Positions 7,015 through 9,870 of a stretch of 64,000 nucleotides of DNA are shown piece after piece (position 1 is the stretch's first letter; each line of letters opens with the position of its first letter). The DNA is taken from assembly GCA_965202785.1 (NCBI GenBank), contig OZ241855.1, positions 768,001 through 832,000 of the forward strand, in the 5' to 3' direction. The translations under genes were made by a program, and so were the position numbers. The notes under the pieces were generated by a model. That model saw nothing but the letters and a program-made list of their open reading frames with translations. It was not told the origin of the DNA and did no database searches. The stretch comes from Thermodesulfobacteriota bacterium. Its GTDB lineage: Bacteria; Desulfobacterota_D; UBA1144; Nemesobacterales; Nemesobacteraceae.

Positions 7015-9870
7015 ATGATTTCTTACGTCCTGAAAAAAATAGTCGGCTCGCAGAACGAAAGGGAGGTAAAGAGGCTCGGCGTTTTTGCAGAGCGGATAAA
7101 TACCCTTGAAGAAACCCTGGTTAAGGTTCCCACGGCGGAGCTTCGCGCGAAAACCTCGCAGTTCCGGGAACTGATACATTCCCGCCTCGGTACAAACGGA
7201 AATCCGTCCGACGAGAAATATTTCGCTGAGATGGAGCGGGTTCTCGAGGAGATCCTGCCGGAGGCGTTCGCCGCCGTAAGGGAAGCGTCAAGAAGAACGA
7301 TAGCCATGAGGCATTTTGATGTCCAGATGATAGGGGGAATGGTTCTTCACAGAGGCAGAATAGCCGAGATGAGAACCGGGGAGGGAAAGACACTGGTCGC
7401 CGTCTTGCCCCTTTACTTAAACGCCCTCACCGGGCTCGGTTCCCACCTTATCACGGTAAACGATTACCTGGCTGCAAGGGATGCCACCTGGATGTCGCCG
7501 ATTTTTATGGTCCTAGACATGAAGGTGGGAGTTATAAATCACGACGCCTCCTACGTACTTGCCTGGGAGGACCCCAAGCGGGCCGAAGAGTCGGTAGAGA
7601 AAAACCTGACCGCGTGGCCAAACGAGTATCTGGCGAGCGATGTTCTTCCCGAAAAAAACCTCGACATCATAAATTCCTTCAAGACCTGCCTCGAGCCTTC
7701 ATCCAGGCAGGATTCCTACCAGGCGGATATTACCTACGGTACCAACAACGAGTTCGGTTTCGACTACTTGCGCGACAACATGAAGTTCTCTCTTGAGAGC
7801 TACGTTCAGCGCGGCCACAATTTCGCCATAGTGGACGAGGTCGACAGCATTCTCATAGACGAGGCTAGAACCCCGCTTATAATCTCAGGGCCTTCGGAGG
7901 ACTCGACCGATCTTTACTACAAGGTGGACAAGGTGGTGAAGACGCTCTCCGGGAAGACCGATTTCACGGTGGACGAGAAAACAAGGCAGGTGGATCTTAC
8001 CGAGGAGGGGGTTTCCAAGGTGGAGAGGGACCTCGACGTTGCGAACCTCTACGATCCCGTCAGCCTCAAGATTCTCCACCACGTTAACCAGTCGCTTCGT
8101 GCCAATGCCCTTTTCAACCTCGACGTCGACTACATGATGCAGGACGGGAAGGTGGTTATAGTCGACGAGTTCACGGGAAGGCTCATGCCGGGGCGCAGGT
8201 GGAGCGACGGGCTTCACCAGGCGGTTGAGGCCAAGGAAGGGGTGGAAATCGAAAGCGAGAACCAGACGATGGCCACCATAACCATCCAGAACTATTTCAG
8301 GATGTACAGAAAGCTTGCCGGTATGACGGGTACCGCCGACACAGAAGCGTTTGAGTTTAAGCACATATATGATCTTGACGTCACCGTGATACCGACCCAC
8401 AAGCCGCTTGTAAGGAAAGATTACGAAGATGTTGTCTACAGGACCGAGCGCGAGAAATTCAACGCCGCGTGTGCGGAGATAAAGGAAATGAATTCCGCCG
8501 GCCGGCCGGTGCTTGTCGGCACCTCGTCGATCGAGCAGTCGGAAAAACTGGGCGAGTACCTTGAGAAGATAGGTCTTGGACACAACGTGCTTAACGCCAA
8601 ACAGCACGGAAAGGAGGCCGAGATCGTCGCCCAGGCGGGCAGAATAGGGTCCATAACCATAGCGACCAACATGGCGGGTAGGGGAACGGACATACTGCTC
8701 GGCGGGAATCCCGAATTCCTTGCAAGGGATATTCTCAGGAAAGAGCTCAGGGTCCAGCCCGAGGAAGCAGATCCCAAGCAGTACGAGGAAGCGCTTTTCG
8801 AGGCGAAATCGATCTGCGATTCGGAAAAGGAGAAAGTTAAGGAACTCGGCGGACTTCATATCCTTTCGGTCGAAAGACACGAGGCTAGGAGGATAGATAA
8901 CCAGTTTAGGGGAAGAGCGGGAAGGCAGGGAGATGACGGATCTTCTAGGTTCTATGTTTCCCTTGAAGACGACCTGATGCGTATTTTCGCCTCGGAGAGG
9001 ATAACGGGAGTCATGGACAAGCTCGGATGGGAGGAAGGGGAGCCGATTGAGCACTCGATGATAAGCAAGTCGATTGAGAACGCCCAGAAAAAGGTCGAGG
9101 GAAGGAATTTCGACATCCGCAAGCATCTTTTGAGGTACGATGATGTTCTCAACACGCAAAGGGACGTTGTCTACAGCCAGCGCCGCGAGATACTTGAAGG
9201 CGGTGAGAGCCTCAGAGAGATAGTTTTTTCGTCTTCAGAAGACATCGTTCGGGAAGTTGTGAGCGACTACTTGGCAGGGCGGGACGACCGCCCGGAATCT
9301 GATTTCTCCGAGCTCTGCGAAGTTATCGGGAGAATTTTCGGAACGGAAATCGAGATAGAAGCCTCCGGCAAGGCGGACGGGGAAGTCATAACGGAAGAAG
9401 TCACCGGAAAACTGATTGCCGCATACCGGGAAAAAGCGGAGAAAATAGGCCCTGAGCACCTCTCGCAGGTCGAACGCTACGTCATGCTTCAGCACATCGA
9501 CTACCTCTGGAAGGATCATCTTCTTAACATGGATCACCTTAGGGAAGGGGTGGGACTCAGGGGATACGCACAGAAAGACCCCCTTCGGGAATACACCAAA
9601 GAGGGCTTTGACATGTTCACTCTCATGATGGACAAGTTCAGGATGGATGTCTGCTCGAATCTTTTCAGGATACAGCCCGCGAGTGAAGAACAGATCGAGG
9701 AACTTGAGAGAAAAAGAGAGCTTGAGGAAAAAAAGATGGTGCTCGGGCGGGGAGAAGGGTCGGAAGAAAAGGCCAAGACGCCGGTCAGGAGAACGCAGAA
9801 GAAAGTCGGTCGGAACAGCCCGTGCCCTTGCGGCAGCGGCAAGAAATACAAAAAGTGCTGCGGTCGGTAA
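7015..9870 (+). CDS. secA: Preprotein translocase ATPase SecA
   Basis: Motifs [42 protein letters not shown] and [12 protein letters not shown]-terminal [13 protein letters not shown]. Confidence 0.99.

Follow-up and report, generated by a model that had tools for sequence, protein, structure and literature searches.

An NBD1 insert in the SecA of Dadabacteria and its relation to the insert of Thermotogales and Aquificales

The SecA proteins of Thermotogales and Aquificales carry a 50-amino-acid insert that was reported by Khadka, Persaud and Gupta in 2019 to be "exclusively present" in these two orders (PMC7023208, cited here and below from excerpts of the paper). In the excerpts, the insert is placed on the surface of the first nucleotide-binding domain (NBD1) near the nucleotide, is described as a pair of extra strands with two short helices, and is argued to confer thermostability by means of a water network with Glu185 that stabilizes bound ADP or ATP. 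The same source describes a 76-amino-acid insert in the SecA of Thermales and Hydrogenibacillus that is claimed to be thermophile-specific and is sited at the periphery of NBD2. The present analysis concerns an insert of the first kind in the secA gene of a Dadabacteria genome; the gene lies in a 64,000-nucleotide stretch of contig OZ241855.1, which is referred to as the window. The insert is read here, with a probability of roughly 0.8, as a vertically inherited and selectively maintained accessory module of SecA that is homologous to the Thermotogales/Aquificales insert and is specific to neither those orders nor a thermophilic host. While the insert itself was known already, the set of hosts, the failure of its claimed specificity and thermophile exclusivity, and a series of three states (full, hairpin and none) are new.

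The insert of the window SecA

The gene and the parts of it that are referred to below are the following.

7015..9870, + strand: secA, 951 amino acids plus stop; open reading frame with five Pfam SecA domains, closest solved structures all SecA
7369..7392, + strand: Walker A / motif I of NBD1, M119-T126, MRTGEGKT, from the translation
7537..7719, + strand: NBD1 insert region, N175-Y235, 61 amino acids against 13 in short-linker SecAs (net gain 48)
9811..9867, + strand: C-terminal SEC-C zinc-binding motif, Pfam PF02810, residues 933-951

The host genome (1.64 Mb, a single contig) contains one copy of secA, as counted by a match search of the genome itself. The Pfam domains of the product are, in order, SecA_DEAD (PF07517, E = 2e-120), SecA_PP_bind (PF01043), P-loop_SecA (PF21090), SecA_SW (PF07516) and SEC-C (PF02810), which includes the succession of SecA_DEAD, PPXD, second P-loop domain and wing/scaffold that is required of a SecA. 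A search of the PDB returned exclusively SecA among the best matches, with E values down to 1e-256. Across 60 SecAs, E118, M119 and T121-T126 at the Walker A motif are invariant, position 120 is nearly so, and the positions of the DEAD-like motif DEVDS at residue 274 are invariant as well. From its family membership and the sole gene copy, the protein appears to be the housekeeping SecA and would be expected to drive translocation through SecYEG with ATP.

The insert region was taken to begin with the Asn that follows VGVI and to end with the Tyr that precedes (x)xDITYG, which gives 61 residues in the window SecA, 63 in Thermotogales and 13 in the insert-less SecAs of Thermotogota and Aquificota. 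An alignment with E. coli SecA (2FSF) is broken in two at this point (query residues 10-173 to 2-148 and 230-908 to 157-843), leaving 56 query residues against 8, and the alignments with B. subtilis and M. tuberculosis SecA are likewise broken at the insert site. Apart from T. maritima SecA, 21 SecA sequence groups give an alignment that breaks or ends at the insert. In contrast, T. maritima SecA (3JUX, 4YS0 and 3DIN) gives one unbroken alignment across the insert, with a fragment aligning from 1-130 to 116-247 (E = 1.2e-35). An insertion of about 50 residues at 7540-7705, opposite a short linker in E. coli and B. subtilis, had been proposed in an initial annotation of this DNA; it is real, its proposed interval falls within the limits given above, and both reference alignments break where the short linker was expected. 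The T. maritima motif that had been given in the annotation is also borne out by the unbroken alignment, reading SY..VW..P..A..AIE.N.SVWP...F.V.L....R.EAY.

The Thermales/Hydrogenibacillus insert resembles that of the window in being a large surface insert of the SecA motor that is thermophile-specific by claim, but it occupies another site, and T. thermophilus SecA (2IPC) aligns with the window protein in two stretches and not through the insert. The window SecA itself has a second extra segment relative to E. coli SecA, about 17 amino acids in the N-terminal helical region at 7165-7220 (about residues 51-68, HMMER alignment).

A profile made from the insert only, with 7 Dadabacteria sequences, was searched against a library of 1.84 billion proteins and matched residues 170-229 of an Aquificales-type SecA (P0037) with E = 9.4e-5; the similarity therefore resides in the insert itself and not merely in its flanks. 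The library of 50%-identity representatives yielded five matches to this profile, none of them from the window's clade, and is unfit as a census since SecA collapses there into few clusters; of the five, P0037 alone was taken into the analysis. When 23 inserts from four lineages were aligned, W184 and W201 were found to be invariant (23/23), with P202 in 20/23, a fixed spacing, and near invariance of N175, S179, A234 and Y235. All of these inserts occupy the same site and are 57-64 amino acids long; the window insert shares 21-31% identity with those of other phyla. The window SecA thus has the site, the approximately 50 extra residues and the sequence similarity within the insert by which the published insert is defined.

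Set beside the T. maritima type, the window insert follows the same VGVI, shares the motif SY.V.W.(D/N)...(A/S)(I/V)E.(N/D)...WP...F...L...R..AY and the same predicted strands and helices, and has an acidic residue at the Glu185 position. It differs in having one residue fewer ahead of SY and lacking one or two in the loop, and in its host, a member of Dadabacteria that occurs in metagenomes of sponges, marine sites and reefs and has a 16S rRNA GC content of 55%. The resemblance to the Thermotogae/Aquificae insert that had been noted at the outset can be taken as homology by descent with a single origin, judging by the T. maritima alignment, the profile match and the alignment of 23 inserts. 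Independent convergent insertion in each lineage, which according to the excerpts of PMC7023208 was favored by Khadka et al. for Thermotogales versus Aquificales and which draws on the separation of the lineages in the SecA trees (both there and here), is scarcely credible given that match, the 21-31% identity to the window insert, the two invariant tryptophans, and the common spacing, site and length.

An AlphaFold2 model of the window SecA was built with 60 SecAs (predicted local distance difference test score, pLDDT = 82.3). Within the insert, the model has these elements.

7549..7566, + strand: strand beta-1, S179-W184, SYVLAW (AlphaFold2 strand 179-184), ending on the invariant W184
7573..7599, + strand: helix 1, P187-E195 (AlphaFold2 helix 187-195), block pLDDT 91-96
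7600..7659, + strand: loop with the invariant W201, then P202, and with D209 opposite T. maritima Glu185; AlphaFold2, residues 206-210 at pLDDT <50
7660..7677, + strand: helix 2, L216-S221 (AlphaFold2 helix 216-221)
7684..7701, + strand: strand beta-2, T224-S229 (AlphaFold2 strand 224-229), paired with beta-1

The module is predicted from this model to be a two-stranded beta-hairpin with an enlarged tip made up of two short helices and a loop. The two added strands and two short helices agree with the published account of the insert, compared by description with the excerpts of PMC7023208. D209 was identified as the counterpart of Glu185 by a hand count on the pairwise alignment, and the adjoining columns are mostly Asp or Glu. 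The structural comparison with T. maritima SecA that the initial annotation had suggested was made at the level of the fold with Foldseek, for which the two best matches of the model were T. maritima SecA 4YS0 and 3JUX.

Distribution of the full insert and the hairpin-only form

Within the window's GTDB phylum, an insert profile matches 100 of 120 genomes. In the window's order, the insert is present in 99 of 100 genomes besides the window genome, with family counts of 36/36, 15/15, 2/2, 4/5, 1/1, 6/6, 2/2 and 33/33 (f1 to f8); the one genome that lacks a match is 83% complete. The full insert is present in none of 19 genomes of the sister order, which are about 1 Mb in size. Three loci from family f6 of the window's order, in genomes of 1.2-1.5 Mb, have an insert of 57-59 amino acids with WV or WQ in place of Trp-Pro and a trimmed loop; this short, divergent insert may represent an intermediate stage of pruning. 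In one genome of the window's genus (G058:C1:2077029-2077214), the frame around the insert runs 1915 amino acids from stop to stop, about twice the length of SecA, which could reflect read-through into a neighboring gene or a fusion.

Genomes of Thermotogota, Aquificota and Brevinematia were classed by the length of the SecA_DEAD match, with rows counted by hand. A SecA_DEAD match was obtained for 149 of 151 Thermotogota, 80 of which are of insert length, 68 not and 1 unclassifiable. The insert is present in 58 of the 71 Aquificota sampled and absent from the remaining 13. Brevinematia gave a match in 40 of 43 genomes, with the full insert in 8/40 and a shorter span in 32/40. The numbers of sequences read with and without the full insert were 12 and 8 for Thermotogota, 8 and 6 for Aquificota, and 6 and 8 for Brevinematia. 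One Thermotogota locus (G199:C12:161503-162615) has a SecA_DEAD match broken by 8 TGA and 3 TAA codons and may be a pseudogene, a wrong-frame match or a recoding artefact. A group of Thermotogota with genomes of 3-4 Mb has a divergent full insert with TY or SF for SY and with DIVYGTN; one such genome, with a 16S GC content of 53.3% and five 16S copies, is seemingly non-thermophilic yet insert-bearing.

Sequence collections were scanned with a degenerate DNA motif pattern that misses variants such as SF or WV. With one genome per GTDB species, at least 119 stretches were found, and among the 119 matches listed the nearest type was Dadabacteria for 44, Aquificota for 48, Thermotogota for 23 and Brevinematia for 3, with 1 chance match in Bacteroidota. 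Metagenome contigs of the Joint Genome Institute (JGI) gave 117 stretches (47 Dadabacteria, 35 Aquificota, 31 Thermotogota and 4 Brevinematia). With this one degenerate pattern, a fifth type of insert appeared neither in the 117 JGI stretches nor among the GTDB matches listed. A search of 8000 candidates with a profile of all four lineages gave 159 matches; no new lineage appeared among the 120 listed, the named rows being exclusively Aquificota or Thermotogota; 12 of 13 unnamed or odd rows could be parsed by pattern, all as Aquificota or Thermotogota type.

The full insert was found in four lineages, namely Thermotogota, Aquificota, Dadabacteria and part of Brevinematia. The published restriction to Thermotogales and Aquificales is contradicted by the carriers in Dadabacteria and Brevinematia, in agreement with the expectation of the initial annotation that an unrelated diderm host would break the claimed specificity. 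That annotation had also named a wide occurrence among mesophiles as a ground for doubt. The insert does extend throughout a lineage in a largely non-thermophilic phylum; the carriers found by the scans above amount to four lineages.

At ten loci, the taxon in the public title clashes with the type of secA. Metagenome-assembled genomes (MAGs) titled 'Uncultured Spirochaetia', 'Deltaproteobacteria' and 'Eiseniibacteriota' have a Dadabacteria-type secA, and for two of these MAGs an identical counterpart exists among the genomes of the window's genus or order. An Aquificaceae-type secA is present in a MAG titled 'Acidobacteria'.

The SecAs of the sister order are not simply devoid of the insert. 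Five were read and have 27-28 residues at the site, for example NNDKSYIVESKDDNEFSLMESKRQEIY; in 5/5, both strands are retained and the helical middle of about 34 residues is gone. A model of one of them has strands at 162-167 and 173-178 joined by a five-residue turn, with a block pLDDT of 88-91. The Brevinematia SecAs of shorter span have the same bare hairpin in 8/8 read, for example NHEKSYYVDWEDISQFKTTYRECSRQEAY, and 6 of these 8 retain the invariant Trp of the full insert (SY.V.WED). One hairpin-only protein is named as Thermospira aquatica SecA by NCBI. A search with the hairpin region gave 11 matches from 34 candidates, the named ones being Thermospira aquatica SecA, a Brevinematales SecA and an unlabelled SecA. 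The hairpin-only SecAs of pelagic Dadabacteria and most Brevinematia thus share with the window SecA the site, the two strands and the flanks NH(D/E).SY.V.W ... F.T.L.EC.R.EAY, and differ from it by the helical middle. A full-text search found no description in print of the hairpin-only form or of Dadabacteria or Brevinematia as hosts of the insert, the 2019 insert paper being the only relevant one.

Graham and Tully in 2021 divided Dadabacteria into three clades, which are hydrothermal, organic-carbon-associated (including sponges) and streamlined marine pelagic (PMC8115339, cited from excerpts). The hairpin-only forms are most simply regarded as deletion products, because the pelagic order is streamlined, because the Trp is kept in 6/8 Brevinematia, and because the reverse course needs the same insertion at least twice. 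On that reverse course, a bare hairpin would be the older state, and a 34-amino-acid helical piece would have been added later at its tip. Hairpin-only forms are sister to full-insert forms in two lineages and the tree does not polarize the change, which would suit a stepwise build. It is unlikely nonetheless, given that at least two lineages would have had to acquire the same homologous helical piece at the tip of the hairpin, that the Trp kept by Brevinematia looks vestigial, and that genome streamlining of the pelagic order is known independently, as stated in the excerpts of PMC8115339.

Descent, selection and temperature

A SecA tree was calculated from 66 sequences over 806 columns, those of the insert being excluded (maximum likelihood, LG+G4, quick search). 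Thermotogota, Aquificota, Brevinematia and Dadabacteria each form one clan, with Shimodaira-Hasegawa-like approximate likelihood ratio test (SH-aLRT) supports of 100, 99, 99 and 97, respectively. The window falls inside Dadabacteria, and the hairpin-only order is the sister of the window's order. A single clade of the 39 full-insert rows is rejected by the approximately unbiased (AU) test (delta lnL 433, p-AU 8.8e-52), and the insert trait undergoes at least four changes of state on this tree. Since the phyla form clans and the single clade is rejected, whole-gene transfer of secA, which the initial annotation had offered as one explanation, is rejected. The idea that Dadabacteria acquired secA from Thermotogales or Aquificales could appeal to the presence of the same insert in unrelated phyla and to the exchange among thermophiles that is often invoked (excerpts of PMC7023208), but it is highly improbable given also that the sister order without the insert is placed next to the window's order, that identity to other phyla in the core is merely 0.51-0.57, and that the genome has no second secA.

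The insert columns alone (65) give a consistent picture. In a tree of these, supports (ultrafast bootstrap, UFBoot, followed by SH-aLRT) were 97/90 for Dadabacteria, 96/91 for Aquificota, 99/96 for Brevinematia and 87/92 for Thermotogota, with one clan per lineage and none nested in another. Insert identity between phyla is 0.35-0.40. For within-phylum pairs at a core identity of 0.55-0.65, it is 0.32-0.43, so that the insert tracks the core. With the divergence of the insert in step with that of the core, any exchange would have to be older than all four crown groups, though the measure saturates near 0.35. In Dadabacteria, the insert is vertically inherited and is a trait of the lineage. It predates the diversification of the window's order, and it is probably as old as the phylum, because the streamlined pelagic sister order still has the hairpin, only the helical middle being absent. 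The four lineages could have come by the insert in either of two ways, by ancient presence followed by many losses or by a very old exchange of an NBD1 segment between stem lineages.

Selection on the insert was estimated in the window's genus by the Nei-Gojobori method (NG86) with 31 species-level sequences, the pairs being pooled and hence non-independent. dN/dS was 0.090 over the 61 codons of the insert and 0.093 over 549 codons of the core. Near-identical secA words were found in 20 sequencing runs from 9 studies, which are labelled as sponge, marine or coral reef metagenomes or as coded organisms; three runs with shares of 0.85-0.99 possibly include the source sample. The 16S GC content is 55.1% in the window genome, which is among the 10 of 11 insert-bearing Dadabacteria genomes at 53.1-55.6%. 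Insert-bearing Brevinematia have values of 53.8% and 55.7%. One insert-bearing genome each of Thermotogota and Aquificota has 63.7% and 65.2%, respectively, and these two comparators from thermophile lineages are set apart from the other genomes by the measure. One genome each without the insert has 61.2% in Aquificota and 57.3% in Thermotogota.

The GC content of rRNA is reportedly linked to growth temperature, a relationship attributed to Galtier and Lobry in 1997 and not calibrated on these genomes. The case for a non-thermophilic host rests more firmly on the habitat labels. For the SecA core, the IVYWREL fraction (Ile, Val, Tyr, Trp, Arg, Glu and Leu) and the difference between charged and polar residues (CvP) overlap too far between lineages to part thermophiles from mesophiles. 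The window's genome departs from the published rule of thermophile-only hosts, with the caveats about proteome composition and the 16S proxy given next.

Several observations weigh against a vertically inherited module that is independent of heat. The census rests on one degenerate DNA pattern, and the count by GTDB species is a lower bound. In the 138 columns of NBD1 that flank the insert, the phyla are not recovered, a single clade of the insert-bearing SecAs passes the AU test (p-AU 0.29), and support at the deep nodes is 28-84. The direction of change between hairpin and full insert is left unpolarized by the SecA tree. As for temperature, the excerpts of PMC8115339 report the hydrothermal Dadabacteria clade, and one insert-bearing Dadabacteria genome has a 16S GC content of 59.3%. 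A genome that is probably Thermospira aquatica (thermophilic according to the title of a reference) has 55.1%, from which it follows that moderate thermophily escapes the 16S proxy. The proteome of the window genome has an IVYWREL fraction of 0.4116 (crude open reading frames), which is mildly thermophile-like; by the Zeldovich formula, uncalibrated for these genomes, this corresponds to about 51 °C. Lastly, the role proposed for the water network rests on a single molecular dynamics study of T. maritima SecA.

The flank result could reflect an old mosaic NBD1 or simply too little signal. If the former, the NBD1 segment alone would have passed from one stem lineage to another through gene conversion, following a transient second copy of secA, the remainder of the gene being native, an idea that Khadka et al. 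have raised as well (excerpts of PMC7023208). Such an exchange would suit a module with four distant carriers, sisters that lack it and repeated changes of state, and over residues 141-263 the insert-bearing SecAs are as close or slightly closer to the carriers of other phyla than to the insert-less forms of their own. The flanks are short and nearly invariant, with local identities all of 0.7-0.9 in sliding windows, and the failure to reject may reflect low power. The inserts stand in separate lineage clans with a divergence equal to that of the core, and no donor can be named for an event that must predate the four crown groups. A segmental exchange of this kind is a serious possibility to which clearly less than even odds are given.

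A thermostabilizing insert that arose in a thermophilic ancestor of Dadabacteria and persists by inertia in the mesophiles of today is distinctly improbable. The published association with thermophiles (excerpts of PMC7023208), the hydrothermal clade, the genome at 59.3%, the IVYWREL fraction and the trimming of the insert in a streamlined order of the cold ocean would all fit such a relic. Strong purifying selection in a genus of sponge, marine and reef habitats shows that the insert is not a decaying relic of heat. It is retained throughout the order, as described above, and the association with heat fails in both directions elsewhere: 13 of 71 sampled Aquificota, thermophile-like and including the genome at 61.2%, lack the insert, a SecA named Thermospira aquatica has the hairpin alone, and a 4-Mb Thermotogota genome at 53.3% has the full insert in its divergent form. 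The thermophilic ancestry put forward in the initial annotation finds some favor in the hydrothermal clade and the genome of high 16S GC, and the selection on the insert speaks against a decaying relic. A thermophilic ancestor of Dadabacteria is possible, yet dispensable for explaining the data.

Proposed role of the module and other features of the window

Given purifying selection equal to that on the core and hosts that are not thermophiles, the module is best read as a working component of the motor, as opposed to an adaptation to heat or a decaying relic. Its packing on the surface of NBD1 beside the adenine pocket would be mediated by W184 and W201. By analogy with Glu185 of T. maritima, the acidic residue D209 may help to hold an ordered network of water that stabilizes ADP or ATP, and through this network the module might tune the affinity for nucleotide or its release. 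A docking surface for a partner protein is an equally open alternative. More tentatively, and on rather doubtful odds, the module may be an ancient and separable subdomain of SecA, older than several deep bacterial splits, that has been pruned repeatedly to the hairpin or to nothing and that has a job unrelated to temperature, such as a gate for ADP release or a partner dock. If this were true, SecAs would display one regulatory element at three natural 'trim levels'.

With the accessory module fixed and strongly constrained in a largely non-thermophilic candidate phylum, and present again in a subclade of spirochaetes, the insert loses both of its proposed uses, as a marker of Thermotogales and Aquificales and as a device for thermostability, and the question shifts to what the module contributes to the nucleotide cycle of the motor. 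The full, hairpin and none series inside single phyla provides natural deletion variants for biochemistry. The case also calls for caution with conserved-indel markers whose definition predates the sampling of uncultured lineages.

Two other features of the window are recorded here. An open reading frame of 1196 amino acids at 3321-6911 (+ strand), directly 5' of secA, resembles an SMC chromosome-partition ATPase as judged from its translation alone. A cobalamin riboswitch (RF00174) is located at 56698-56912 on the - strand (73.3 bits, E = 3.7e-16).

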